From a virus: a stretch of 50,347 nucleotides of DNA. The translations under genes and the position numbers were made by a program. Positions 1,886-50,252 of the stretch are shown here, one piece after another; the stretch's first letter is position 1; every line of letters starts with the position of its first letter. Below the pieces are notes generated by a model. That model did not search any database. It was not told the origin of the DNA and saw only the letters and a list, made by a program, of their open reading frames with translations. The DNA lies in IMG/VR virus record IMGVR_UViG_3300045988_092645, positions 1-50,347 of that record; one strand, written 5' to 3'.

Positions 1886-2110
1886 CTAAAAATCAACACT
1901 TGCAACTTCAACGAGTCCTTCTTCTACCGCTGTAACCTTAACAATGTTTGTTGCTTCACTTGTTCCACTTTTTCTATCTTCTATGTTATTAAATACACGC
2001 TCCCAACTTCCTGCACCAATTATACTGTAAGATTCATTGTCTCCAAGTTTTACTGTGATTTGATTATCTGTAAAATTCTTAACCAAAAACTGACTACGTC
2101 TTAATGACAT
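1886..2110 (-). CDS. hypothetical protein
   Basis: Track ORF 1886..2119 (GTG). An in-frame ATG at 2110 overlaps the stop of a 20-codon upstream ORF (2101..2163) that has an AAAGGAGG RBS. Confidence 0.45.
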   Translation of the reverse strand: MSLRRSQFLVKNFTDNQITVKLGDNESYSIIGAGSWERVFNNIEDRKSGTSEATNIVKVTAVEEGLVEVASVDF

Positions 2111-2240
2111 AGTAAACACGGTTTGTATACCAGCAGAACAATTTTTTGTTGCACATCTTTCATATTATATTACCTCCTTTTTTATTCCACTTGCTATTGT
2201 TCATTTTCTCTGTTCTCCTTTCCACATTTCACATTAAACC

Positions 2241-2319
2241 TTATCCTGCTCTACTATTTGTTTTTTGTTCTTTTATATCTGCTACTGTATAATTATCTAA
2301 TGCATACCACAAGGCACTA
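2241..2319 (-). CDS. terL: terminase large subunit, exon 3 of 3
   Basis: Reads (F)SALWYALDNYTVADIKEQKTNSRAG*. This supplies the conserved TerL C-terminal H-x-x-[DS]-A-L-[RW]-Y-A motif that is missing from exon 2. Confidence 0.75.
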
Positions 2320-3277
2320 CGATATATTGACTTGGCTTTTTATCCATGTCCTCTTATAGTTGTCATTCCTACAAGTCTAGCATACCTATTAACTTTTTAT
2401 AGTTTAGACTACGAACTTTATACTTACCTCTTACTGTCCAATTATGCTGAATAGCTTGCGTGATATTTACTTTATTGTCGAAAAATCTTCTTGCTTCACG
2501 ATTTGAATAGAAATAGAATTTTTGCTTTGTTTCAATATCAGTTATGACAACAGATTGTAGTTTTTGTTTTCTGTTTATTTTTAGCACACGGCTTAAATCT
2601 GAATCTTCTAAAATATAATATTCCATAACCCGTGTATTAATGCCTCTAACAGTTCTATTTATTGCTTTTCCGGCTTCATCCAACGAGCTAAACTTGCCTA
2701 TGTACTGTAATCTGAAATCATACACACAACATTCTGTGCCATGTATTCCCCACATATTATATTGTGTTATGTGATTTTCCATATTGCCTTTCCTATCAGT
2801 CCATCGTAAATTGCTATACTTGTTATTTGTTTTGTTTGTGTCTATATGGTCAATCTCATTATATTGCTCTGAATGTCCAGAAACAAAACCATATCCAACT
2901 AACCTATGAACAAAACATTTTTTCCACCTTCTCTCACCTTTTAACTTTAAGGCTACTTGTTTATATCCTGTGCTGTTATAACTTTGTTTTAGTTCATTTC
3001 CATCTTTTCCATAAACATTACCATATTTGTCTACTTCGTAAATATCTAATACCTGTTCATAATCCTTTGCTAATGTATTTACTTTCTTCCTCTCATACAT
3101 TACTGGCAAACTCCTTTCTTAAATCACAATGGCTCTTGGGAACATTATTCTTTCGTCAGTTCCTATGCGTTGTGCGTGTCATGCGGCTATACGCTCCATA
3201 ACTTCCGCTCGGGTTGGCATCTCAGCTTTTCCCGTTTTTCCATCGTTTTATACACCCCTAGTCTTGTGGTATTTTTA
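2320..3277 (-). mobile_element. group I intron 2 in terL, carrying an HNH homing endonuclease
   Basis: P1 pairing: exon ACACCUU with intron GGGGUGU, with U.G at the splice site. The intron ends in G. The 5' part is a GC-rich structured segment. A GUAGUCUAAAC element is shared with intron 1. The exon phases restore the TerL frame. Confidence 0.7.
2369..3100 (-). CDS. HNH homing endonuclease (intron-encoded)
   Basis: YGNVYGKDG...YKQVAL N-terminal module plus EIDHIDTNKTNNKYSNLRW (HNH_3-type). The ATG at 3100 follows an AAAGGAG RBS. Confidence 0.85.
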   Translation of the reverse strand: MYERKKVNTLAKDYEQVLDIYEVDKYGNVYGKDGNELKQSYNSTGYKQVALKLKGERRWKKCFVHRLVGYGFVSGHSEQYNEIDHIDTNKTNNKYSNLRWTDRKGNMENHITQYNMWGIHGTECCVYDFRLQYIGKFSSLDEAGKAINRTVRGINTRVMEYYILEDSDLSRVLKINRKQKLQSVVITDIETKQKFYFYSNREARRFFDNKVNITQAIQHNWTVRGKYKVRSLNYKKLIGMLDL

Positions 3278-3504
3278 AAGGTGTGAGCATCAATATTAAA
3301 TTGGTCATATATTGGTTCATCCTTCGTATCCTTTGCATAAACTAAATCTTTTAGCTCTATGATTGTGTTTACACAACGAGGCGAACAGACAATCTTTTTA
3401 AACCTCTTTATTTTCTTTGTGTTTTGTAATCTACTACCAATGTACTTTTTGCACTTCTTAACATAAAAACCTTCTTGCCTGTAATACTGAATTGTTTTAG
3501 GTTC
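3278..3504 (-). CDS. terL: terminase large subunit, exon 2 of 3
   Basis: EPKTIQYYRQEGF...CSPRCVNTIIELKDLVY...FNIDAHTF matches the TerL nuclease-domain pattern DSAEPksI...C.NT..EL..Y. Confidence 0.8.
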
Positions 3505-4343
3505 CAATATATTCTGCATAGGTCGCTACTCTATACACGTTCTCTTATGAACTGCTTATACTTTCATATAAGTTTAGACTATATCTTAGCATTTCTGCCC
3601 CATGCTTTTCCACACGCTTATGTGTACTCTACTTACTTCCATTATATTTTGGATATCTAACATAATGTGTTTTCGATAGTCGTTGAATAGCTTGTTCTTT
3701 CGTTAGTTTTTGATATGAAAACAAATATCCTTTGTGTTGTCTTTCAATTCCTCTACATACATTTGCAACATGACTTCTATTAAATCCATCATAAGACGCA
3801 TCTGCTGTTGATTTATAATTACAAATATAATTACCATCTAAATCATATTTGTAAACCATCTTCGATAAACTCCAATCATTATTTTCCTTTGGAGTTACCC
3901 AACACAGATTGTCTGCATTATTATTTTTTCTGTTTTCGTCTTTATGATTAACATATTTTCTTTTTGATGTTTCTCCTTTTACAAAAGCCTTTGCGACTAA
4001 TCTGTTTACTCTAACATAATTTACTTTGTTATGTTTTGTTGTAAGAACAACATTCAAATAACCACCTGTTTTCTCATACTGCTTTAACTCTTTTCTATGA
4101 AAGACATCTACAACCTTTCCTCCATTTGTTCTGAGAGAAAATACTCTTCCATCATAAGAAACATAATATCCATCGTTTATATGCTCAAACCCTTTTATTT
4201 TATTTATTTGTTTCACTTTCATATCAAAATCCTCCGTTTACTTTAAACTACTACTGATTACCCAATCCTTAAAATTATCACGCTACGGTATTTAAGGCTC
4301 TAAGGGCTTCCCAGTATTTAACATGGTTAAGTACCAAAAATTT
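3505..4343 (-). mobile_element. group I intron 1 in terL, carrying an HNH homing endonuclease
   Basis: P1 pairing: exon AGUGCU with intron GGUACU, with U.G at the splice site. The terminal nucleotide is G before GAACCU. The conserved S element AAGAUAUAGUC is at 3577..3587. Hairpins AGCAU/AUGCU and CUUAUA/UAUAAG are present. Confidence 0.8.
3629..4222 (-). CDS. HNH homing endonuclease (intron-encoded)
   Basis: YYVSYDGRVFS module plus VNHKDENRKNNNADNLCWVTPKENN (HNH_3-type). GGAGG RBS. Confidence 0.85.
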   Translation of the reverse strand: MKVKQINKIKGFEHINDGYYVSYDGRVFSLRTNGGKVVDVFHRKELKQYEKTGGYLNVVLTTKHNKVNYVRVNRLVAKAFVKGETSKRKYVNHKDENRKNNNADNLCWVTPKENNDWSLSKMVYKYDLDGNYICNYKSTADASYDGFNRSHVANVCRGIERQHKGYLFSYQKLTKEQAIQRLSKTHYVRYPKYNGSK

Positions 4344-5387
4344 AGCACTATCACATATAATTGGCTTATCTAGTGCGATAGACCTATCTTTCACCTTTTG
4401 TACATCATCCCTTTTGGAAAACTTATCATCAGTTATATTGTTCATATATACTTCATCATAAATATATAAAACCTTTTCTTCATCATCAACACAACAAGAG
4501 ATAAGTGCATTAAATGATGTTTCAAAACCAAAGTCAAAACCAAAGAAATGAAATTTTGATGGAATCCTATGTACAACTGCCTTAAACTCTTTTGCATTTG
4601 TAGCAACTGTAAAATTCGGTAACACTTTTGTTCCATTTGCTCCAAACTTACCAAATCTGGCTACTTGATACAATGATTCATCAATATATTTTAATTCCTC
4701 AAGATTATCTATATATGATTGTGGCAAGAATGGGTTGTCATCAACTGTACTATGATGGTAGTAAACACCATTCTTTTTGTTTACTAATGTTTTCCGTCTG
4801 TATAACTCTTCTTCATCCTGTATAGTCTTCTTAATAATCTTGTCTTCCTTCTTTTCTGTATGTGTAAAGAATAAATCATACACCCAGTTTTCCCTGCCTA
4901 CAGGATTACACGTTAATATAAAATGCAATGTCATATTAGGCTGTCTGACACGTCCTAATACCTCTGTGTAGGCTTTGTAATTTAATTCAGAACATTCTTC
5001 CATCCAAACGATGGAAACTCCATGTATGGACTTTATCTTCTCTGTATTGTCCATTCCTCTGAATATGATTCTGCTACCATTCGGAAAGCGTACCTCCATT
5101 GGAGACTTAACAAACACTATTTTGTTTTTGTCTTTGTCTTTAAATGATAACAAATCCATATCACTAACTATTTGTTTTAATATTTCAAAACAAGAATCCT
5201 TTATCGTTGTAAATACATTTCTTACAACTAGACAAGTACGTTTTTCTTGTAATAATTTTAACACTATCTTCTGTGCTGTTGCTTGGCTCTTACCACTACC
5301 ATAACCGCCAATTACTAAATATTTTTCATAATCCCAGTCCATGATATAGGATGAAAACCTTTCTGATATTTTTACATCAATATCCAT
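4344..5387 (-). CDS. terL: terminase large subunit, exon 1 of 3 (ATPase domain)
   Basis: Walker A GGYGSGKS, Walker B VWMEECSE, ends ...PIICDSA. The last 21 codons of the track ORF (KFLVLNHV...) are read-through into the intron. Confidence 0.85.
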
Positions 5388-5477
5388 CTTTGTTCTCTAC
5401 CTACCTCTACATAGTACAAAAAGCAATGTAATGATACTTTATATTCGCACCTACTACATTGCTTTCTGTCTATTAAT

Positions 5478-5505
5478 AGTATATCATATTATTTTATTTT
5501 GTCAA
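5478..5505 (-). promoter_or_regulatory. sigma-A-type promoter upstream of terL
   Basis: -35 TTGACA (5500..5505), 16-nt spacer, TGaTATACT extended -10 (5478..5483). Confidence 0.55.
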
Positions 5506-5509
5506 GGGA

Positions 5510-5842
5510 TTATTTTAATAAATCCAAAATCATATCTAAAATATCACCTGCTTCTTTATCTCTTCGTTTCATTTCTTTCTCTGTACGCATTCCTGTATCT
5601 ATTTCTATCTTTCTTAATGCTGTTGAAATAGACGAAATGCAATCATCTAACCTTGCAACATGACCCCTGTTCAAATTAAATTCCTTTCTTTTATCTATCA
5701 GGATAAATGCTGTCTCCCCTATTGTTGACATTATAATACCATTCTGAATCTGAATGTTATTAAGTTTCTCGATGATAATATCTTCCTTTGTTTGTTTTGT
5801 TTCCTGTTCTTTTCTTTCTTCTCTGTTTTTGTTTTCTTCCAT
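5510..5842 (-). CDS. hypothetical protein
   Basis: Track ORF with an AAAGGAA RBS. The termini are charged. No motif recognised. Confidence 0.55.
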   Translation of the reverse strand: MEENKNREERKEQETKQTKEDIIIEKLNNIQIQNGIIMSTIGETAFILIDKRKEFNLNRGHVARLDDCISSISTALRKIEIDTGMRTEKEMKRRDKEAGDILDMILDLLK

Positions 5843-5888
5843 TTCTTTGTTTCCTTTCTTGATTAATATTTTATTTATTTGTTATAAA

Positions 5889-5962
5889 TGGAAAGTGTAG
5901 GAATCGAACCTACGACCTGTCGGTTATGAGCCGAGTGCTACTACCATCTGAGCTAACTTTCC
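5889..5962 (-). tRNA. tRNA-Met (anticodon CAU; an Ile2/lysidine identity cannot be excluded)
   Basis: Cloverleaf: acceptor GGAAAGU/ACUUUCC, anticodon loop CUCAUAA, T arm GUAGG-UUCGAUU-CCUAC, discriminator A. The D stem has one mismatch. Confidence 0.85.
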
Positions 5963-5965
5963 TTA

Positions 5966-6037
5966 CTGGGTATGTTGGATTTGAACCAACGTATCTAGGA
6001 GTCAAAGTCCTATGCCTTACCGCTTGGCTAATACCCA
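5966..6037 (-). tRNA. tRNA-Gln (anticodon UUG)
   Basis: Acceptor UGGGUAU/AUACCCA (U1:A72), anticodon stem UAGGA/UCCUA, loop CUUUGAC, T arm GUUGG-UUCAAAU-CCAAC. Confidence 0.85.
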
Positions 6038-6073
6038 TTATGACGGTTTAACCTATTCCACCGACAAGGTGTG

Positions 6074-6313
6074 TTATTCAAAGTTTCCTGTCTCAAAGTA
6101 GTTCCATAATTTATCAAATCCAACCTGTGCATCCTCTGTTGTTTTTACTTTCGTGTCTAATTGTCTGTCAATTAGATTTTGTTCGCTTTTGTGTTGCCAT
6201 GCTATCGGTTCAGCGTTCCAATCTGCACATACCGAATAGCTGCACCCTCTATATTCATATTCGAGATATTTTCTATTTTGGAATATGTATAAACCGATAT
6301 ATTTTGCTTTCAT
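6074..6313 (-). CDS. hypothetical protein
   Basis: Track ORF with a GGAGGAAAG RBS. Confidence 0.55.
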   Translation of the reverse strand: MKAKYIGLYIFQNRKYLEYEYRGCSYSVCADWNAEPIAWQHKSEQNLIDRQLDTKVKTTEDAQVGFDKLWNYFETGNFE

Positions 6314-6351
6314 AATTTCTTTCCTCCTAAAATTTTGTTCTTTCTGATTAC

Positions 6352-6380
6352 ATCATAACACAATGTTTTGTTTTTGTCAA
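6352..6380 (-). promoter_or_regulatory. sigma-A-type promoter
   Basis: -35 TTGACA (6375..6380), 17-nt spacer, TGtTATGAT (-10 at 6352..6357). Confidence 0.6.
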
Positions 6381-6411
6381 CAGTTTAATAAATAATTTGT
6401 TCATCTTTTTT

Positions 6412-6648
6412 TTATACTGGCAGTGCCATTTTACAGATACCTAAATCAACAATTTTGACACTATCACTTTTAATGATTTCCTGTACATCTTCTTTTTCTA
6501 ATGGTTCATATAACAATTCTTTCCATGTTGTTTTTATATCTAACTTTATTTTATTATAGAACTTTTCCGCTTGTTCTTTTGACATATAATCACTACGTTC
6601 TACATACCCATTGTCATTTCCAAATCTTACCTCAACATCGTATAACAT
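6412..6648 (-). CDS. hypothetical protein
   Basis: Track ORF with an AAGGAAG RBS. Confidence 0.55.
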   Translation of the reverse strand: MLYDVEVRFGNDNGYVERSDYMSKEQAEKFYNKIKLDIKTTWKELLYEPLEKEDVQEIIKSDSVKIVDLGICKMALPV

Positions 6649-6695
6649 AATATTTACTTCCTTTCTTTTTTGTTCTCTCTTATTAACTTATATTT

Positions 6696-6723
6696 ATTAT
6701 AACATAATATCTTAATATGTCAA
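6696..6723 (-). promoter_or_regulatory. sigma-A-type promoter
   Basis: -35 TTGACA (6718..6723), 16-nt spacer, TGtTATAAT (-10 at 6696..6701). Confidence 0.65.
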
Positions 6724-6757
6724 TACCTTTTTAATAATTTGTTTTATAATTATTCAC

Positions 6758-6788
6758 ATAATAAAACAGGCACCCTAAACGAGTGCCT
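6758..6788 (-). terminator. intrinsic terminator after yhhQ
   Basis: Stem AGGCAC/GUGCCU with a 9-nt loop, followed on the minus strand by GUUUUAUUAU. Confidence 0.6.
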
Positions 6789-6794
6789 ATAACT

Positions 6795-7400
6795 TTAATT
6801 ATTTAATTTATTTATGCATCTTTTGGTTAATGGAAACAGTACAACCTCATACATTGTTTCAATAATTGTAGCACCAACAGTCATTAGCAAAACATCTTTA
6901 AATTCCATGATACCAATAAAAGCTAAAAAGCTAAAAAGAAAGTTATCTAACAGTTGTCCTACAACTGTGCTTGATATTGCTCTAAAAAACAAACTGCTTT
7001 TCTTTTTAAAGTCTGCCATAATCTTCACATTAACGATTGACCCAACACTATAAGCAATAAAGCTTGAAATAACTATTCTAAAAGTTGTTCCCATAATTGT
7101 TGCAAAGGCTTTTTGGTTTTGATAAAAACTAGCCTTTGGAATATAAATACTAATAACGCCTAGAATTATCATACAGAAGTTCATTAGGTAACCAAACAAA
7201 ACCATATTTCTAGCTTTCTTGAACCCATATGTCTCCGTATAAATATCTTGAGTTAAAAATACTAATGGTGAAACAAGAATCCCTGTTGTTACTGAGAAAA
7301 TAAATACACTTATGTTTTTTGTTGCAAGCACATTTTGAATAATTACACCTGCACAATACATTGCAAAAATATACTTTTCTACTTTTGTTTTAATTTCCAT
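6795..7400 (-). CDS. yhhQ: 7-deazaguanine precursor (preQ0/preQ1) transporter, YhhQ/VUT family
   Basis: Multi-TM protein alignable by eye to E. coli YhhQ: FLTQDIYTETYGFKKAR, ISSFIAYSVGSIVNV, STVVGQLLDNFLFSFLAF. The ATG at 7400 follows AAGGAG and overlaps the dpdA stop. Confidence 0.8.
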   Translation of the reverse strand: MEIKTKVEKYIFAMYCAGVIIQNVLATKNISVFIFSVTTGILVSPLVFLTQDIYTETYGFKKARNMVLFGYLMNFCMIILGVISIYIPKASFYQNQKAFATIMGTTFRIVISSFIAYSVGSIVNVKIMADFKKKSSLFFRAISSTVVGQLLDNFLFSFLAFIGIMEFKDVLLMTVGATIIETMYEVVLFPLTKRCINKLNN

Positions 7401-8169
7401 TTTTAGTCCACTCCTTATCATCTTTTGATTTATTTTTTTGAGCTTGTATCCAGCAAGCTAAATTATTTGTGTTGAATGTTTGTCTGTCTATTCCTCTGTT
7501 AGCCATATTCCTTTGTAGTAAATGACCGTTTTTATATGTATACCATGTTCCATATCTAGCACCAGATAACCAAGCAGTACTGTCCACGCTATCAAATGGC
7601 ACTGTAGTATTATTAATATTACTTAATCGAGTATAGGCTAACCCATGTACATGACAATCGTTATTATGAGCAATCCTAAGTAATTGCCTTAGAGTTTTTG
7701 GATTCTTTACATATTCATCTATGCCTTTAACAATTCCACTTGCGGCAATCGCAATGTAGTCATACTCTTTACACATCTGCTTATAGTAATCAATGCCTCT
7801 AATTGCATGAAATACTGGTATTGTTTGTTTACCTGTTCTCTTTTCTATATACTGTCTTATTTTTATTGTCTCTTCTACACCAACAACATGGTCTAGGTCT
7901 AACTCTATAAACTGTTTAATGTCATACTTATTTATAAACTCTATGTAAGAATCTACGTAGCCTTTCCAGTTTACTTTCTTCCCGCTGTTCATAAATGTAA
8001 ATGCACCAGAGTCCAACAAGAACTCTTCACAGCTATTTAGATAGCTTTCCACCTTACTATCTTTCCATGCTCTCATATCATAATATGTTTGAAGTAAATA
8101 CCTATTCCCTTGTGTTTGCATTTGCTTTAACTCAACTTTACCAATACTACCTGCTAAGTATATTTTCAT
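7390..8169 (-). CDS. dpdA: DpdA-like DNA-guanine transglycosylase (TGT superfamily)
   Basis: LLDSGAFTF (cf. TGT DSGGFQ), ELDLDHV, HVHGLAYT, PFDSVDSTAW (cf. FDCV). At 259 aa it is too short for a tRNA TGT. AAGGAG RBS. Confidence 0.6.
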   Translation of the reverse strand: MKIYLAGSIGKVELKQMQTQGNRYLLQTYYDMRAWKDSKVESYLNSCEEFLLDSGAFTFMNSGKKVNWKGYVDSYIEFINKYDIKQFIELDLDHVVGVEETIKIRQYIEKRTGKQTIPVFHAIRGIDYYKQMCKEYDYIAIAASGIVKGIDEYVKNPKTLRQLLRIAHNNDCHVHGLAYTRLSNINNTTVPFDSVDSTAWLSGARYGTWYTYKNGHLLQRNMANRGIDRQTFNTNNLACWIQAQKNKSKDDKEWTKNGN

Positions 8170-8192
8170 GATATACTCCTTATTGTTTGTTA

Positions 8193-8726
8193 TTATGTGT
8201 TTTTAATTTGGCAATCATAACCTTTCTTTTTCAATTTATCTTGCAATATTTTTGTTTCGTCTTCTGTCTTGCATGTTATAATAACAAGGTGTTTTTCTTT
8301 TACTTTAAATTTTACTTCCTTCAAAGCTTTTTCTAAATCATCATCTGTCATGTTTGTATCAAAGCCAAACAAATCCATGTCTATATCTGTAAGCTGTTCT
8401 ATTTCTTCATCAAGTAAACTATAATCCCATTCGCTTTCATTCAGTTTATTATCTACCAACCTATATGCTTTTATTTGTTCTTCTGTTAATTCATCTAAAC
8501 ATACAGTAGGCACTTGTTTTAATCCTGCTTTCTTTGCTCCTAAGATTCTTCCATGTCCTGCTACTACGCAATCATGTTTATCAATTATAACAGGCTGTGT
8601 AAATCCAAACTCTTTGATACTATTGGCTATCTGTTCTACCTGTTCTTTGTTATGTTTCTTTGCATTTTTCTTATACGGTTTTAACTCTTTTATTAGTCTA
8701 TATTTTATGTTTAGCTTTTCTGACAT
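8193..8726 (-). CDS. ParB/Srx N-terminal-domain protein (possible DpdB-like partner)
   Basis: LKPYKKNAKKHNKEQVEQIANSIKEFGFTQPVIID...VVAGHGRILGAKKAG is the ParB-like nuclease/NTPase domain signature. The start is at 8726 or 8750. Confidence 0.7.
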   Translation of the reverse strand: MSEKLNIKYRLIKELKPYKKNAKKHNKEQVEQIANSIKEFGFTQPVIIDKHDCVVAGHGRILGAKKAGLKQVPTVCLDELTEEQIKAYRLVDNKLNESEWDYSLLDEEIEQLTDIDMDLFGFDTNMTDDDLEKALKEVKFKVKEKHLVIITCKTEDETKILQDKLKKKGYDCQIKNT

Positions 8727-8733
8727 ATCCCTT

Positions 8734-8925
8734 TTACACTCCTTTCTCATCTGTTATATGCATTATCTGTTTACCACAAAATGGACAATACCAACTATCA
8801 AGCATTCCCTCAAACATAACAGGGAACCATGATTCTTCTAGTTCATAATCGCATTGTGTTATCCATGCTTTTTGTTCTTGTTCTGCATTTGTTTTCTTTA
8901 TTTTCATCCATCTACATCTGTTCAT
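8734..8925 (-). CDS. small zinc-ribbon-like protein
   Basis: Track ORF with an AAAGGAG RBS and a C-terminal CPFCGK. Confidence 0.5.
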   Translation of the reverse strand: MNRCRWMKIKKTNAEQEQKAWITQCDYELEESWFPVMFEGMLDSWYCPFCGKQIMHITDEKGV

Positions 8926-9022
8926 GTTCTATACTCCTTTATTATTGTTCTGTTATGTTTTGTTGTTCCGTTCTAATATTGTTTGTTTATATATATTATA
9001 TTAAATATATTTATATATTATA

Positions 9023-9187
9023 TTATTCAGATACATAAAATGCACACTTTATATAACCACCTAAATTATAATATTTGTTTTTATCATATTTCTTTTCTAA
9101 GATTTGTTTTAATTCTTTTGTTCTATCTTTATACATACAATTATTCTTATTGCCGCAATTATTACAATTTATATTAATTACAAACAT
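9023..9187 (-). CDS. small Cys-rich protein (54 aa, below the track cutoff)
   Basis: AAAGGTGG RBS 6 nt before the ATG at 9187. Translation: MFVININCNNCGNKNNCMYKDRTKELKQILEKKYDKNKYYNLGGYIKCAFYVSE*. Confidence 0.45.
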   Translation of the reverse strand: MFVININCNNCGNKNNCMYKDRTKELKQILEKKYDKNKYYNLGGYIKCAFYVSE

Positions 9188-9294
9188 ATTAGACCACCTT
9201 TCTAGGCTTCATATAGGCTCATATATACATTCTATATATTTTTACAGGGCATTTATACCCTTATACCTTAAAATGCTTCTATGGCTCTATTTGA

Positions 9295-10062
9295 CTAAAT
9301 AATAAAAATACCTGCATCTGCTTTTGAACCTTTGAAATAATCTGCTTTTGAACCATCGCCAACATTTATTGTTTTCATAATCCATGCAAGTGATACTTCC
9401 TTAAGCTGTCCACTTGTTGCAATTACTATTTTACCATTAAGAGCGAATCCTAAAGCAACATAAGTATGTATTGGATTCTTTTGTTCAATCACTACTTTTT
9501 TGCCTGCCTTTAGAGTTTCTTTGATTATCTTTCTAATATTTGTTTTATTATTTTGTTTTACATCATGGTAAACAGGTTTCTTTTTTGATATTGCTTTTAC
9601 TGTTTTATACGCTCCATGAATTGCTACCTTACTACCATTAAACTTATAATGGCTTCTGCAATACTTATTTATTTCGTATGGACTTTTATTTATTCCATAA
9701 GTCTCTAATGCTTCTACAATAGCGGCAATGGAACAACCATGTTTTGATATATACTCTCCAAAACTATATTGTTTTACGACTTTGATTCTTTTGTTTTGTT
9801 TCCCATTACTTAATACAGCTACCCATGGATATTTTTTATTTTTCTTTTGTTTTTTCTTCAACACAAGTCCTTTAACATATTTGGCATTTATATATCCTGT
9901 GATGTTACAATACTGTACTTTTACATATGGGATGTTTTTATCCCACACATATTTTTTGCCAACAATGTTAACTACTTTATTCATTGGTACTGTTCCTAAA
10001 ACCTTACCTTTTCTGTTTGGTTTTTGCCGAATACTCAATGAATTATATACGTTGCATACCAT
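9295..10062 (-). CDS. SH3b domain + papain-like cysteine peptidase (putative cell-wall hydrolase)
   Basis: N-terminal SH3b-like segment (SIRQKPNRKGKVLGTVPMNKVVNIVGK...YVKVQY...GYINAKYV). C-terminal Cys/His pair (HGCSIAAIVEAL ... IHTYVALG). Confidence 0.45.
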   Translation of the reverse strand: MVCNVYNSLSIRQKPNRKGKVLGTVPMNKVVNIVGKKYVWDKNIPYVKVQYCNITGYINAKYVKGLVLKKKQKKNKKYPWVAVLSNGKQNKRIKVVKQYSFGEYISKHGCSIAAIVEALETYGINKSPYEINKYCRSHYKFNGSKVAIHGAYKTVKAISKKKPVYHDVKQNNKTNIRKIIKETLKAGKKVVIEQKNPIHTYVALGFALNGKIVIATSGQLKEVSLAWIMKTINVGDGSKADYFKGSKADAGIFII

Positions 10063-17962: not shown

Positions 17963-18232
17963 CTACATAAAAGGAATTGTCATATATTCCTCTTTATACT
18001 TCTTCGCAAGCTCTCTATTATTGTGTCCTTTTTCTGAGTGCTCCATATCTTCAATATAATGCATCTGTTTGTCTCTAAACCATTCTTTGTCAACAAGGAT
18101 ATAGTCAATACCATCTAACTGGTATAATAAAAGTTTTTCTCCTACCTTACCACAGAAGATATATCTTTTTTCGTTTTTTCTTCCTTCCTTGTTGATTGAA
18201 AAAATATCTCCAAATTTAATTGTCTTTTTCAT
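17963..18232 (-). CDS. hypothetical protein
   Basis: Track ORF. Confidence 0.5.
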   Translation of the reverse strand: MKKTIKFGDIFSINKEGRKNEKRYIFCGKVGEKLLLYQLDGIDYILVDKEWFRDKQMHYIEDMEHSEKGHNNRELAKKYKEEYMTIPFM

Positions 18233-19043
18233 ATTCTCTTAAAACCTTTCCTTCCTTTCTTATTATACTTCTCCCTAAAATGTCTTGATTATGAAAGAAT
18301 CTGCGATATGTCCATACTTGATTGAACCACATAGGAGTTAACCATATCTTTTCCAAATCATCTGGTAATATAGGTTCTGGTTTAATTAATGAATTATCAT
18401 GTATAACATATCCAGCTAATCCATGTAATGATAACTGAATATAACACATATGAACACAGGTTATGTCAATATCTTGTCCGACAAAATAAACATGATTTTG
18501 ATAATTATATTTATGGAACATTTCCTTGCATTGTTCACTTGCTGATATTAATGTTGCACCAGCACCACAAGCACAATCATACACATTTGCATAACCTTTC
18601 TTATGTACTGTTTTTCCAAGTTCTTTTCTGTCAAATGTGAGATTCGACATTACTTCACACACGCTATATGGTGTAAAGAATTGTCCTGCATTTTTATTAT
18701 GTATTTGCAACATCATATATATTTCACCTAATAAGTCTTGATTTGGTCTTTCTTCTAGTTCTTCTACAATTAATGCAAACATTTGTGGGAAAAGTTTCTG
18801 TTCTTTCTTTGAATAGTTATTAATAATTCTTAGATATTCTTTTTCCCTTTTGTCCCATATTTCTTTAAATTGTTCAAACTCTGTCATTGGTAAAATACTT
18901 TGATTTGCTAATGTAATTGCAAACAATGCCATACAATCTGACCATACTTGATAAGGTGATTTTGAACCACATAGTAATTTAAATCCTTTTTCGAATCTCT
19001 TTTTATAATCCCCACTAATTGTTTTTCTCATGCTTTTAACCAT
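18216..19043 (-). CDS. HsdM/N6-MTase-like SAM-binding protein lacking a canonical (D/N)PP(F/Y/W) motif
   Basis: FFTPYSVCEVM (motif X-like), VYDCACGAGATLISA (motif I), VGQDID, IHDNSL. The motif IV position reads LTPMWF. Confidence 0.55.
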   Translation of the reverse strand: MVKSMRKTISGDYKKRFEKGFKLLCGSKSPYQVWSDCMALFAITLANQSILPMTEFEQFKEIWDKREKEYLRIINNYSKKEQKLFPQMFALIVEELEERPNQDLLGEIYMMLQIHNKNAGQFFTPYSVCEVMSNLTFDRKELGKTVHKKGYANVYDCACGAGATLISASEQCKEMFHKYNYQNHVYFVGQDIDITCVHMCYIQLSLHGLAGYVIHDNSLIKPEPILPDDLEKIWLTPMWFNQVWTYRRFFHNQDILGRSIIRKEGKVLREYEKDN

Positions 19044-20561: not shown

Positions 20562-20736
20562 TGTCCTGCACCTCTATTGATATTATATCTTTTTTTTGAT
20601 ATTTTGTCAAATCAACAAATCTTTCTATCGCACTTTGCTCGTTTGTATCATAACAAAAAAATGTACATATTGTATTATATTCCAAATCACTCCTTTTATA
20701 TCGTAAGCAATAAAAATTTAATCCAGTTTCATTCAT
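20545..20736 (-). CDS. hypothetical protein
   Basis: Track ORF. Confidence 0.45.
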   Translation of the reverse strand: MNETGLNFYCLRYKRSDLEYNTICTFFCYDTNEQSAIERFVDLTKYQKKDIISIEVQDNGSFR

Positions 20737-22604
20737 CCTTTGTATTTTTCCCTCCTTTCTGTCATGATTTCTTTTCTCACATCCTGCAAATCTTCAAATG
20801 GAATGAAACCTCTATCATAAATCAATGGGATTTCACACTCACCTTTTGGATTGCAAACTTTTGATTTTACAACTTTGCACTTCATAATCATGCCGATTGT
20901 TTCCTTGCTTGCTGTATTATATGGGTTATGATTTGGAATATCAATATATCCCTTTCGTGCTACCTGTATTCTCAAAGAACAACTATGTTTTAATTTATGA
21001 CCGCCTGGTGTTTGTATATTGTCTCCAAATGGCAAAGCGTTCATTTTATCTCGAATCTGATTAATAAATATAACAGTTGTTCCTGTTTGCTCTATTACAT
21101 CCTCTAAGGTTGGCAAATATTTATCCATTAACCTAGCAACACCACCAATCCTTGTTTCTTGTTCGCTATCTGTATTTACAGCCTTTCTAATTTTGTCTAT
21201 ATCATCCTTCGGTTGCATTGATGGTACACTATCAATAATAATTAATGGAATACCTTCCTCTGCGAATCTGATTGCTCTATTAAATGCTTTTTCACCATAC
21301 CTTGCTCTGTATACTAACATCTGCTTTGGTTTATTCCCAAACACCTTTGCTCTATTTGAATCAAACGTATTACCTGTTACAATAATACGATTATTTCTAC
21401 GCATAACCCACATTCCAGATGGCATCGTAAAACAATACATTTTCCCATCAACTGGTTTAAATTGTTCTACCGTTGCTTTTCTAAGGCTTACAATATCACT
21501 TCTGATACCCGAACAAACTGTATAACTTACTTTACTATTATCAATCAAACGACCATCAATATAATGGTATTCATCCCACCTATCACGTTCTACAATATAT
21601 GCGGCATATCCGCACGCTGTATAAGCAAACTGAATAAAATCAGCATCTTTTTTATTTATTGTCGTAAAACTCGGCATATGCCCTTTTTCAAATTGGCAAC
21701 CATCCCAATGTTTCATTTCATCCAACACAACCATTAACTGTCTGTTTGACATACCATACCATTCGCTAGGATAATGTTTAAATTTATATGGTGCATAAAA
21801 CTTAAAGAACTTTTTATCTTTCGATAACATATATTCAATTCCACAGTTTGTTAACAGCATTTTCATTCTATCTCGTTTTCTTTTTTTTGTTAATCCAACA
21901 TAACACAGATTTGTTTTATTCTCTTTTTTAAAACTTCCATCTGCCATTACTGCAACCATTAGACGAATAACTTCGTCTGATAAACTAACACCTTCTCCGC
22001 TGAACATAAACGTTTTTGGAATGTTTCCTGCAAACCCTTCTTTGTTTCTCAACATTCTTAAACGAATATCATGGAATGGCTTTATTTTTACTTTATTACT
22101 TCCAACTGGCTTGTACACTACATTATGATGTTCTGATACAACCATGTCTAATCTATTTTTTGTTTTCACATTCCACATAAGACAAGCATCTTTTTTATGA
22201 TACTTTAATGGTTCAACAAGTGTTGCTGTCCCATCTTCATTATATTGTAATACTTTCTCTCCCTTTTTATAATCACTAATTTTCTTCCATCCTTCTCCAT
22301 TAAAAAACTCTGTATCTTTATCTACGCATCCTTCAATCGGAATATCTAAACAAATTTCATGTTGTGAACATAAATGATATGCTAAAGAAGTTTTTCCTGC
22401 GGATTCACCTCCGAAGATTTCTATTGTTCTTCCTTTTGGCATACCTCCACCGATTATGTTATCAAGCTCTGGTAAACCTGTGCCCCATCTAGGAATTTTC
22501 AAAATACCATTTTTGCTTCCTAGACTATATACAGAACCATCACCCTCTTTTTTTGATATTTCCGAACATAACTTCATAATTGCTTCTCTGTTCATTTGTT
22601 TCAT
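20733..22604 (-). CDS. recA: RecA-family recombinase interrupted by an intein (extein 303 aa)
   Basis: IPRWGTGLPELDNIIGGGMPKGRTIEIFGGESAGKTSLAYHL, IIIDSV, GGVARLM, VIFINQIRDK, TPGGHKLKH. Confidence 0.85.
   Translation of the reverse strand: MKQMNREAIMKLCSEISKKEGDGSVYSLGSKNGILKIPRWGTGLPELDNIIGGGMPKGRTIEIFGGESAGKTSLAYHLCSQHEICLDIPIEGCVDKDTEFFNGEGWKKISDYKKGEKVLQYNEDGTATLVEPLKYHKKDACLMWNVKTKNRLDMVVSEHHNVVYKPVGSNKVKIKPFHDIRLRMLRNKEGFAGNIPKTFMFSGEGVSLSDEVIRLMVAVMADGSFKKENKTNLCYVGLTKKRKRDRMKMLLTNCGIEYMLSKDKKFFKFYAPYKFKHYPSEWYGMSNRQLMVVLDEMKHWDGCQFEKGHMPSFTTINKKDADFIQFAYTACGYAAYIVERDRWDEYHYIDGRLIDNSKVSYTVCSGIRSDIVSLRKATVEQFKPVDGKMYCFTMPSGMWVMRRNNRIIVTGNTFDSNRAKVFGNKPKQMLVYRARYGEKAFNRAIRFAEEGIPLIIIDSVPSMQPKDDIDKIRKAVNTDSEQETRIGGVARLMDKYLPTLEDVIEQTGTTVIFINQIRDKMNALPFGDNIQTPGGHKLKHSCSLRIQVARKGYIDIPNHNPYNTASKETIGMIMKCKVVKSKVCNPKGECEIPLIYDRGFIPFEDLQDVRKEIMTERREKYKG
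21369..22328 (-). mobile_element. intein with LAGLIDADG homing endonuclease (residues 93-412 of the ORF)
   Basis: Starts at Cys (PIEG|CVDKDTEF). Block B VSEHH. LAGLIDADG motifs LMVAVMADGSF and VVLDEMKHWDGC. Ends IIVTGN|T. Removing it joins CLDIPIEG-TFDSNRAKVFG, colinear with RecA FIDAEHALDPVYAKKLG. Confidence 0.8.
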
Positions 22605-49297: not shown

Positions 49298-50029
49298 CTA
49301 TTTTTTATATTTCTTTGCTTTGTTTAATGTTTCTTTTCCAAACTTACCATTCACAGTTAATTTAAACATTTTCTGCGCTTTCTCTTCTGCCTTTGCTGTA
49401 CTTTCTCCATATTTACCATCAATCTTCAAGTCGGCATCTACTAACCAATTAAGCAGTTCTTGTACTCTCTTAATCTGTGTCGGGTATTCTGTATATGTTT
49501 TATATCCATCACCAATCTGAAAGTATCCTCTTGGCGGCAATACAGGAAATACATCCTTATAGGTAGTTGGTTCAACTGCTTTTAAGAATAATGCCCTTTC
49601 GGCTTTTCTACGTCTTGTAAGACCTCTGTAAACCCTTCCACCTGCCTTGTTATAAGATAACATTTTCTCTGCAATCTGTTTCTTTGTTCTTGTTCCATTT
49701 GCTGTTAACATTTTAATGCTCCCAATGTTAAAACAAAAAGACACAAGTGCTTCAAATTCATTTTGATTCCAATGATAAATGTTATCATATTTATTAACTA
49801 AAGGCGAATATTTCTTTCTTAAAGATTCCAAAAGCCATTTGTTAGCGGTATCTTTTGTTATCCTCATACCACTTTTGATTGTTCTACCTGTGATACCCTT
49901 ATCAGAATTTGTGATACCATAACCGATTGTCCAAACTCCTACTTCGTCCCTGCAGGCTTTTAACTGACAACCTTCAAATTCTTTTACAATTTTCATTCCT
50001 TCGCCATTTGCTCTAAATGTTTTCATCAT
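49298..50029 (-). CDS. endolysin: GH24 lysozyme + peptidoglycan-binding domain
   Basis: IVKEFEGCQLKACRDEVGVWTIGYGIT (T4-lysozyme-like catalytic Glu region). C-terminal KIDGKYGESTAKAEEKAQKMF...VNGKFGKETL (PG_binding_1-like). Confidence 0.85.
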   Translation of the reverse strand: MMKTFRANGEGMKIVKEFEGCQLKACRDEVGVWTIGYGITNSDKGITGRTIKSGMRITKDTANKWLLESLRKKYSPLVNKYDNIYHWNQNEFEALVSFCFNIGSIKMLTANGTRTKKQIAEKMLSYNKAGGRVYRGLTRRRKAERALFLKAVEPTTYKDVFPVLPPRGYFQIGDGYKTYTEYPTQIKRVQELLNWLVDADLKIDGKYGESTAKAEEKAQKMFKLTVNGKFGKETLNKAKKYKK

Positions 50030-50252
50030 TAACACCTACTTCTGGAATGCCTGCAATACTTGTTAAAACACTCACAACACCTGCTACAACACTTGCAGAT
50101 ACTACCATCTTCCAGTCTACAGAACTAATTACCGTTCCTGCACCAATAACACCAACTGCTGTTTGTGCCATTGTTTTAATTGCTCTAACTCCTGTTGCCT
50201 TACACCACTTAATTGTATTCACATCTGGTTTAAATACACAATTCTTAAACAT
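50013..50252 (-). CDS. holin
   Basis: MFKNCVFKPDVNTIKWCKATGVRAIKTMAQTAVGVIGAG...VVAGVVSVLTSIAG has two TM segments. The ATG at 50252 is 8 nt after AAGGAG. The track start at 50300 lies inside the upstream gene. Confidence 0.75.
   Translation of the reverse strand: MFKNCVFKPDVNTIKWCKATGVRAIKTMAQTAVGVIGAGTVISSVDWKMVVSASVVAGVVSVLTSIAGIPEVGVNDENI

Follow-up and report, generated by a model that had tools for sequence, protein, structure and literature searches.

The window analysed here, a stretch of 50,347 nucleotides (IMG/VR virus record IMGVR_UViG_3300045988_092645, positions 1 to 50,347), is the complete circular genome of a human-gut phage. Its minus strand carries three consecutive genes that form one operon and encode, in the order of transcription, a ParB_N protein, a homolog of DpdA-type DNA-guanine transglycosylases and a queuosine-precursor transporter of the QPTR/YhhQ family. 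An exact 55-bp repeat is present at both termini of the window and the circle thus comprises 50,292 bp. The same genes are present on contigs of 50,419 (k127) and 50,411 (k119) bases, which come from other assemblies (one labelled human gut metagenome) and reduce to the same circle, in agreement with the preliminary description of this DNA, which was made from the letters alone and had regarded the window as a whole genome. The features of the operon are as follows.

8193..8726, minus strand: ParB_N (ParB/Srx-fold) protein of 177 aa, identified by PF02195 and phrog_620
8170..8192, minus strand: spacer of 23 nt between the ParB_N and DpdA genes, read from the sequence and containing the ribosome-binding site (RBS) AAGGAG (8181-8176)
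7390..8169, minus strand: DpdA-type DNA-guanine transglycosylase homolog of 259 aa, identified by phrog_887, by BLASTP with DpdA of phage CAjan and by fold
6795..7400, minus strand: QPTR/YhhQ-family (COG1738, Vut_1) queuosine-precursor transporter of 201 aa, identified by PF02592 and TIGR00697

The three genes had been placed at these positions before, and gene calling in three public assemblies of this phage led to identical boundaries (177, 259 and 201 aa). All three are preceded by an AAGGAG RBS, located at 8744-8739 for the ATG at 8726, at 8181-8176 for the ATG at 8169 and at 7416-7411 for the ATG at 7400. At its longest, the ParB_N open reading frame (ORF) begins at 8750; a start at the ATG at 8726 agrees better with its homologs, with public gene calls and with the position of the RBS. 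Translational coupling had been assumed for the whole trio, but an overlap exists only at the last junction: the transporter gene overlaps the end of dpdA, stop codon included, by 11 nt and has its RBS inside dpdA. The ParB_N and DpdA genes lie 23 nt apart and the latter has an RBS of its own. When the region was compared with 50,697 phage records by Megablast, nothing matched, and the closest relatives in genome collections (46% identity) were found on metagenome-assembled genome contigs of Oscillospiraceae and Thomasclavelia.

To the 259-aa protein, phrog_887 ('queuine tRNA-ribosyltransferase') could be matched with E 3.9e-42. Because Pfam, NCBIfam and PADLOC gave no match, its family was established via PHROGs, BLASTP with CAjan DpdA and fold; a profile search of the sequences in the Protein Data Bank (PDB) yielded noise only. 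BLASTP with DpdA of CAjan gave 26% identity over ~200 aa (E 8e-10), and the motifs LDSGAF, LD, PCFH and SCDSSSW of CAjan DpdA align with the conserved motifs of the window protein. CAjan DpdA is genetically validated, as deletion of its gene leads to loss of the nucleoside of 7-cyano-7-deazaguanine (preQ0), dPreQ0, from the phage DNA. In an alignment of 37 homologs, D53 (LLDSGAF), D91 (ELDLD), H121 (PVFH) and D196 (DSVDS) are invariant, H121 being the histidine that typifies DpdA. Their spacing (53/91/121/196) parallels that of Asp95/Asp130/His181/Asp256 in DpdA of Salmonella (bDpdA), residues that were shown to be catalytic or base-reading; this correspondence is inferred from the spacing rather than from a superposition. 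The AlphaFold2 (AF2) model of the protein was of high confidence (predicted local distance difference test score (pLDDT) 92.1, predicted TM-score (pTM) 0.90). When it was compared with the PDB by Foldseek, the best 46 matches all belonged to the tRNA-guanine transglycosylase (TGT) family, with E values down to 1.8e-7 and query-normalised TM-scores (TMq) of 0.6-0.67. The best matches in BFVD were phage queuine tRNA-ribosyltransferase/DpdA proteins, including those of nt-1 and phiST. According to this model, the 259-aa protein is a minimal TGT-like TIM barrel, and its initial assignment as a DpdA-type protein of TGT fold was upheld.

The stand-alone ParB/Srx domain recognized earlier in the 177-aa protein was recovered as well, with 38.6 bits against PF02195 (cutoff 26.3) and E 1.7e-51 against phrog_620. 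A CTPase-type ParB domain that contains a conserved GHGR box makes up the N-terminal part of the protein and is followed by an acidic linker and, at the C-terminus, by a small further region. Its closest sequence match in the PDB is the CDP-bound CTPase domain of Bacillus subtilis Spo0J (6SDK, E 4.6e-6). In this alignment, VAGHGRILGAKKAGL of the ParB_N protein falls on the CTP-binding VAGERRFRAAKLAGL of Spo0J, and VAGHGRILGA is aligned with ParB box II of 6SDK (VAGERRFRAA), so that a GHGR box stands against a GERR box. The top Foldseek matches of the ParB_N model were nucleotide-bound (CDP or CTPgammaS) ParB, Noc and KorB. G65 and R68, which belong to the GxxR nucleotide-binding box, are retained in 87% or more of the 61 ParB_N homologs that are linked to such a module. 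Homologs of the protein are 177-180 aa long. The domain together with its acidic linker is also found as the N-terminal module of many DNA methyltransferases: residues 20-145 align with phrog_498 and with the N-terminal module of MTase_II (E 4.7e-28), which was the only PADLOC match of the protein.

Two more specific identities were considered for the ParB_N protein and rejected. Bacterial DpdB, an ATPase that resembles DndB and SspE, carries a DGQQR motif, consists of two domains, the C-terminal one being alpha-helical and SspE-like, and forms a homodimer of ~80-95 kDa. The 177-aa protein has a GHGR box instead and neither a DGQQR motif nor a second domain; in its model, the ParB_N domain spans residues 1-95, while the acidic linker behind it, which is poorly predicted, and short helices make up the rest, and no Dpd or DndB match was obtained with the PADLOC Dpd models or the NCBIfam DpdB/DndB models. 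It also differs from a canonical partition ParB: TIGR00180 scored 43.4 bits, below its cutoff of 58.45, and covered profile positions 12-101 of 186 only, and no family with a helix-turn-helix (HTH) was matched in Pfam.

The third protein was identified as a YhhQ-type importer, as had been proposed. It matched PF02592 (Vut_1) with E 4e-37 (128.3 bits, cutoff 27.2) and the equivalog model TIGR00697 'queuosine precursor transporter' with 98.6 bits (cutoff 50.95), and stayed below the Escherichia coli-type preQ0/preQ1 equivalog NF008406 (64.3 bits, cutoff 252). Members of the QPTR family differ in substrate and transport either preQ0 and 7-aminomethyl-7-deazaguanine (preQ1) or queuine. Of the profiles that the preliminary description had suggested as a check, PF02592 and PF02195 matched; the 259-aa protein had no Pfam match, and the PADLOC Dpd models gave no match.

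A further claim was that the phage lacks genes for making the precursor itself. With the exception of the tape-measure gene, every minus-strand ORF of 50 aa or more was scanned with Pfam, and phmmer and hidden Markov model (HMM) searches were run as well; no FolE, QueD, QueE, QueC, QueF or ArcS-type domain was detected in the genome. When FolE, QueD, QueE and QueC of CAjan and of mycobacteriophage Rosebush were used in phmmer against all six-frame segments of at least 40 aa, nothing was found at E<=10, nor did HMMs built from 23-33 related-phage sequences per enzyme give anything in the window at E<=10. An HMM for QueT, the other known queuosine-precursor transporter family, did not match the window either, and six conserved ORF families of unassigned identity from related modules were searched for there and found to be missing. 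Within the reach of these searches, the absence of genes for precursor biosynthesis was thus confirmed.

To place the operon among its relatives, 131 loci from two independent collections were compared with locally built HMMs. The viral set comprised 82 loci (80 from IMG/VR, one from Fusobacterium phage phiFN37 and one from a faecal contig). The GTDB genome set contributed 49, mostly from gut anaerobes (Oscillospiraceae, Thomasclavelia, Lachnospiraceae, Veillonella, Prevotella, Muribaculaceae, Faecalibacterium and Peptoniphilus). Relatives were found by an alignment-based scan, while a search with the single protein gave none. The DpdA-like family is large, with 2013 database clusters and at least 573 relatives on viral contigs. 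Of the 114 loci with enough upstream sequence, 108 have a ParB_N gene as the immediate upstream neighbour of the DpdA gene in the same orientation, and the two genes often overlap by 4 nt. A natural in-frame ParB_N-DpdA fusion of 436 aa, P0106, is followed by QueT, terminase and portal genes; no other such fusion was found among the 131 loci. A second composite ORF, P0115 (N-terminal half DpdA, C-terminal half Vut_1), looks like a deletion chimera and was not used as evidence. Adjacency and fusion indicate, at the level of sequence, that the ParB_N protein is a conserved partner of DpdA. The suggestion that the two represent a minimal DpdA/DpdB pair holds as an analogy only, since homology to DpdB was not found.

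Among the 108 loci for which 3 kb or more of downstream sequence was available, 106 have a precursor-supply cassette (QPTR, QueT or FolE/QueD/QueE) next to the ParB-DpdA pair, which links the DpdA gene to the supply of 7-deazaguanine precursors. The cassettes were distributed as follows.

QPTR only: 47 of 108 loci, 9 of them also with QueC
QueT only: 14 of 108 loci, 1 of them also with QueC
FolE/QueD/QueE only: 43 of 108 loci, QueC usually present too
QPTR together with biosynthesis genes: 2 of 108 loci
No supply cassette: 2 of 108 loci

Transporter-only loci thus amount to 61 of 108 (47 with QPTR and 14 with QueT). There is a strong negative association between transporter and biosynthesis genes (Fisher p = 3e-25, without phylogenetic correction), and both types interleave throughout a neighbour-joining tree of the DpdAs. 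Because of this interleaving, the cassette seems to have been swapped repeatedly behind a constant ParB-DpdA core, and the transporter and biosynthesis cassettes look interchangeable. The nearest clade of the window phage (L005-L011; L numbers denote individual loci) at first seemed to lack a supply gene; the next ORF proved to be QueT (PF06177) by Pfam (E 3e-25). QueT replaces YhhQ in the slot after ParB-DpdA in 17 related loci (L008:10770-11234; L005-L010, L027, L085, L086, L113, L114, L118, L122, L128, L130, L132, L141). Salvage by transport had been described as an unusual route to DNA modification, which was not supported: the transporter-fed module is one of the two commonest forms in gut phage contigs and the architecture is common. 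Two cultured phages carry it. The GenBank record of phiFN37 (OR492271) annotates the same three genes in the same order, and Faecalibacterium phage Roos (L142, PP479939: 51706-54302) encodes a ParB-like protein (orf76), DpdA (orf78) and YhhQ (orf79), all annotated as hypothetical. The module is usually located just upstream of the terminase genes.

Additional gene families were observed in the related modules. A family of ~106 aa with an 'FCP-I/L-G' motif occurs in 19 loci, all of the transporter type and none of the biosynthesis type (L019:10742-11053, L035:10484-10795, L053:10754-11062 and 16 further loci). Its gene is usually found between those for DpdA and QueC or the transporter; the family has no Pfam match and no homolog in the window, and it possibly acts on the base after import. 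In ten modules, a transporter is accompanied by QueC, with FolE, QueD and QueE all lacking (QPTR in L035, L039, L042, L044, L053, L057, L080, L089 and L104; QueT in L027), which suggests import of 7-carboxy-7-deazaguanine (CDG) or a different use of QueC chemistry. In three of the ten, QueC has a C-terminal extension of ~120 aa that gave no Pfam match. The QueC of L035 (353 aa) was considered as a Gat-QueC amidotransferase fusion and rejected, since only the QueC domain and the unassigned C-terminal extension were found. In nine loci, which include the transporter as well as the biosynthesis type (L001:6805-7239 in phiFN37, L052:2218-2628 and 7 further loci), a gene for a DUF6884 protein (PF21818, E ~1e-40, weakly similar to YaaA) is inserted behind dpdA and ahead of the supply gene.

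Taken together, these results suggest that the operon most likely swaps some guanines in the double-stranded phage DNA for a 7-deazaguanine base that is imported and not made by the phage; we assign this reading a probability of roughly 0.7. The QPTR/YhhQ transporter would enter the host membrane and import a free queuosine-precursor base from the gut environment. This base would most likely be preQ0, possibly preQ1 or another derivative; preQ0 is favoured because the interchangeable biosynthesis cassette ends at QueC and QueF was not found among the conserved neighbour families. The DpdA homolog would then exchange the base in DNA by the double-displacement chemistry of TGTs, with D196 as the predicted nucleophile, D53 as general acid/base and D91 and H121 in base reading. 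The ParB_N protein may serve as the DNA-engaging, probably NTP-dependent partner of DpdA, analogous and not homologous to the bacterial DpdB ATPase, and the modified phage DNA would be expected to resist host restriction. Salvage is supported because the slot after ParB-DpdA holds either a transporter or FolE/QueD/QueE(/QueC), and both in 2 of 108 loci only. The earlier view that the phage imports rather than synthesizes the base is supported by this alternation, while the modification of its DNA is inferred. There is also an ecological fit, as many gut Bacillota lack QueDECF and are reliant on salvage.

Several observations weigh against this interpretation. The 259-aa protein has no Pfam TGT match, and the Cys-cluster Zn site that is conserved in TGT and bDpdA is missing from it: its four cysteines (C47, C133, C172, C239) are scattered and do not form a CxCxxC...H cluster. 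The AF2 model of the ParB_N protein is reliable for residues 1-95 only (pLDDT 69.9 overall). The substrate of a QPTR cannot be read from its sequence and may be preQ0/preQ1 or queuine, and a preQ1 riboswitch, which might have hinted at the imported base, was detected neither in the window nor in the 8 related loci searched, at gathering thresholds as well as at E<=1 across positions 2000-9500. The two phages analysed so far that have DpdA only showed either no modification (Orion) or a mere trace, with the nucleoside of 7-amido-7-deazaguanine (dADG) at ~0.02% of G (7-11). Moreover, the phage-encoded yhhQ is dispensable in CAjan, and host-made preQ0 may be a source for the window phage as well.

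In an alternative reading, DpdA draws mainly on preQ0 from the host pathway and the transporter only boosts the supply, as in CAjan, where deletion of yhhQ leaves the modification unchanged and folE and queC mutants still incorporate host-derived preQ0, at a ~12-fold lower level. Two related loci indeed carry QPTR and biosynthesis genes together. However, an accessory transporter should co-occur freely with biosynthesis genes, and it does so in these 2 of 108 loci as against 61 that are transporter-only. Two unrelated transporter families, QPTR and QueT, occupy the same slot, and the lack of QueDECF in many gut Bacillota speaks against the host as a supplier, which makes a supply mainly by the host unlikely in our view. 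It could further be argued that the ParB-like gene acts independently of DpdA, as a nuclease, packaging or partition factor, and that its position merely reflects conserved synteny near the terminase. Phages commonly encode ParB_N proteins of the stand-alone type (several in the case of phiFN37), the module typically sits just upstream of terminase genes, DpdA of CAjan has no ParB neighbour, and DpdA of phage 9g, expressed in E. coli, gives a restriction-resistance phenotype. An unrelated neighbour would hardly be expected to keep its place in 108 of 114 loci across divergent DpdAs (33-55% identity to that of the window) and many host phyla, often with a 4-nt overlap and once as an in-frame fusion (P0106). 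The same ParB_N and linker module is in addition fused to DNA methyltransferases, pointing to a general role with DNA-modifying enzymes, and we regard an independent function as quite improbable.

Finally, the module might leave DNA untouched and act on RNA or on the queuosine (Q) metabolism of the host, increasing the amount of 7-deazaguanine in host or phage tRNAs and thereby tuning translation. The fold is that of the tRNA-guanine transglycosylases, two phage tRNA genes adjoin the module, and for phages with Q-pathway genes that lack DpdA it was suggested that they may raise Q in tRNA by boosting the production of its precursors (Hutinet, 2019). Yet the 259-aa protein is homologous to the DNA-acting DpdA and lacks the extra tRNA-binding regions and the Zn subdomain of TGTs (360-580 aa), its conserved partner has a ParB-type, DNA-associated fold, the phage tRNAs for Met(CAT) and Gln(TTG) are not GUN-anticodon substrates for Q, and the DNA of the relative Rosebush is modified. 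A role restricted to RNA or to Q metabolism thus appears highly improbable, and exchange of guanines in phage DNA for an imported base remains the preferred reading.

Going one step further, we tentatively propose, as a joint idea that stands a lesser chance of being correct, that the CTPase-type N-domain of ParB, devoid of the parS-binding HTH, might act as a nucleotide-switched subunit that loads a base-exchanging enzyme onto DNA or lets it scan, and that the extent of modification might be set by the cross-fed pool of queuosine precursors in the gut (preQ0, preQ1 or even queuine). If so, the host range of the phage would be coupled to community metabolism, and a general class of ParB_N adaptors would be common to DpdA, DNA methyltransferases and other DNA-modifying enzymes.

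Outside the operon, further features of the window were noted. The stretch that separates the terminase genes from the modification operon contains genes for tRNA-Met(CAT) and tRNA-Gln(TTG) (5889..6037, minus strand), and a tRNA gene is also present shortly downstream of the module in the related loci L003 and L004. A second DNA-modification function is indicated by a domain of N6-adenine DNA methyltransferases (18216..19043, minus strand; PF02384, E 9e-17). The large terminase gene (2369..5387, minus strand) looks interrupted: 4278..5387 encodes Terminase_3 and the nuclease domain Terminase_3C up to its position 43, and 3187..3519 encodes Terminase_3C positions 55-145. An HNH_3 homing-endonuclease ORF (3629..4222) sits between these pieces and a second HNH_3 ORF (2369..3109) follows them. 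Rfam detected no group I intron in this region, which may represent an intron, a split gene or a pseudogene. A RecA-like protein of 623 aa (20733..22604, minus strand) contains a P-loop segment (residues 41-87) and the RecA core (residues 412-600), split by an insert of ~320 aa that starts with 'CLDIPIEG' and ends with 'IIVTGN/T'. The insert looks like an intein with a core of homing-endonuclease size; no Pfam intein or LAGLIDADG match was obtained in the protein at E<=0.01. Two candidates for cell-wall enzymes were found on the minus strand, an SH3_3 protein with a weak Peptidase_C39_2-like match (9295..10062) and an endolysin with Phage_lysozyme and PG_binding_1 domains (49298..50035).

Modification of DNA with 7-deazaguanines is an established anti-restriction and anti-CRISPR strategy of phages. 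The phages shown to be substantially modified all make the precursor themselves, and the status of phages with DpdA only was left open. In the large, mostly gut-associated DpdA clade described here, a single importer gene (QPTR or QueT) is a regular alternative to the four-enzyme pathway. Since the transporter-type module occurs in cultured phages, phiFN37 and Roos, salvage-only DNA modification becomes directly testable. If it is true, modification of gut phage DNA depends on an exogenous supply of queuosine precursors, which would link phage-host dynamics to micronutrient cross-feeding. The two-gene core of ParB_N and DpdA moreover offers a handle on the function of the widespread ParB_N modules that are attached to DNA-modifying enzymes.

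Among the known systems, the cluster of Rosebush/CRB2-type mycobacteriophages (ParB-like gp1, DpdA gp2, QueC, QueD, QueE and FolE) resembles the operon in its order of ParB-like gene, DpdA and supply cassette and in the adjoining terminase gene, and it has exactly the gene order of the biosynthesis-type relatives. Rosebush DNA was shown experimentally to contain dPreQ0 at ~28% of G. It differs from the window in that the four-enzyme preQ0 pathway is present there in place of a single QPTR transporter, and in its proteins: gp2 has 385 aa as opposed to 259 aa for the window DpdA, to which it is only weakly similar (BLASTP E 0.076), and the ParB proteins share 26% identity (E 4e-4). For mycobacteriophage CRB2, the ParB-like ORF1 upstream of DpdA was suggested in 2019 to be a homolog or equivalent of dpdB. 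The CAjan/Seuratvirus cluster (DpdA1, FolE, QueD, QueE, QueC, YhhQ) resembles the operon in its homologous DpdA and in including a gene for a transporter of the YhhQ family; in contrast, it has the full preQ0 pathway, a dispensable yhhQ and no ParB-like neighbour, and the two transporters are barely alignable (E 0.057).

Phages with DpdA only were classified as group 3 and were proposed to rely on host preQ0 or on uptake of an exogenous precursor (Hutinet, 2019). Phage YhhQ homologs were noted in the same study and did not correlate with any phage group, and ParB is mentioned neither there nor in the follow-up of 2023. The window phage resembles group 3 in having DpdA without genes for archaeosine (G+) or preQ0 biosynthesis, and differs from it in that transporter and biosynthesis genes are near-exclusive and ParB_N is a constant partner in its DpdA clade. 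With the bacterial Dpd system of Salmonella Montevideo, in which a DNA transglycosylase of TGT fold and an NTPase of the ParB superfamily insert preQ0, the operon has the conserved Asp/Asp/His/Asp set in common. DpdB is, however, a two-domain protein with a DGQQR motif, as opposed to a 177-aa canonical ParB_N protein with a GHGR box; the Zn site and the DpdA-specific insertions of bDpdA are missing in the window protein, and neither DpdC nor the DpdD-K restriction half is present. Fusions of ParB_N with DNA methyltransferases share the ParB module and contain an S-adenosylmethionine-dependent enzyme, whereas a base-exchanging transglycosylase is predicted here, and unlike in these fusions the ParB module of the window type is usually a separate polypeptide. 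ParBc genes also accompany the phage genes for cytosine carboxymethylation (CmoX), and their function was stated to be unknown in a recent paper. In the full-text literature, mostly that outside subscription journals, we found no description of a core of ParB_N and DpdA to which QPTR, QueT or biosynthesis genes are attached as alternative cassettes, nor of the near-exclusivity of these cassettes, a ParB-DpdA fusion or a phage module of the QueT type. The operon thus represents a form of an established type of phage DNA-modification system in which a transporter supplies the base, and it was partly anticipated in the literature.

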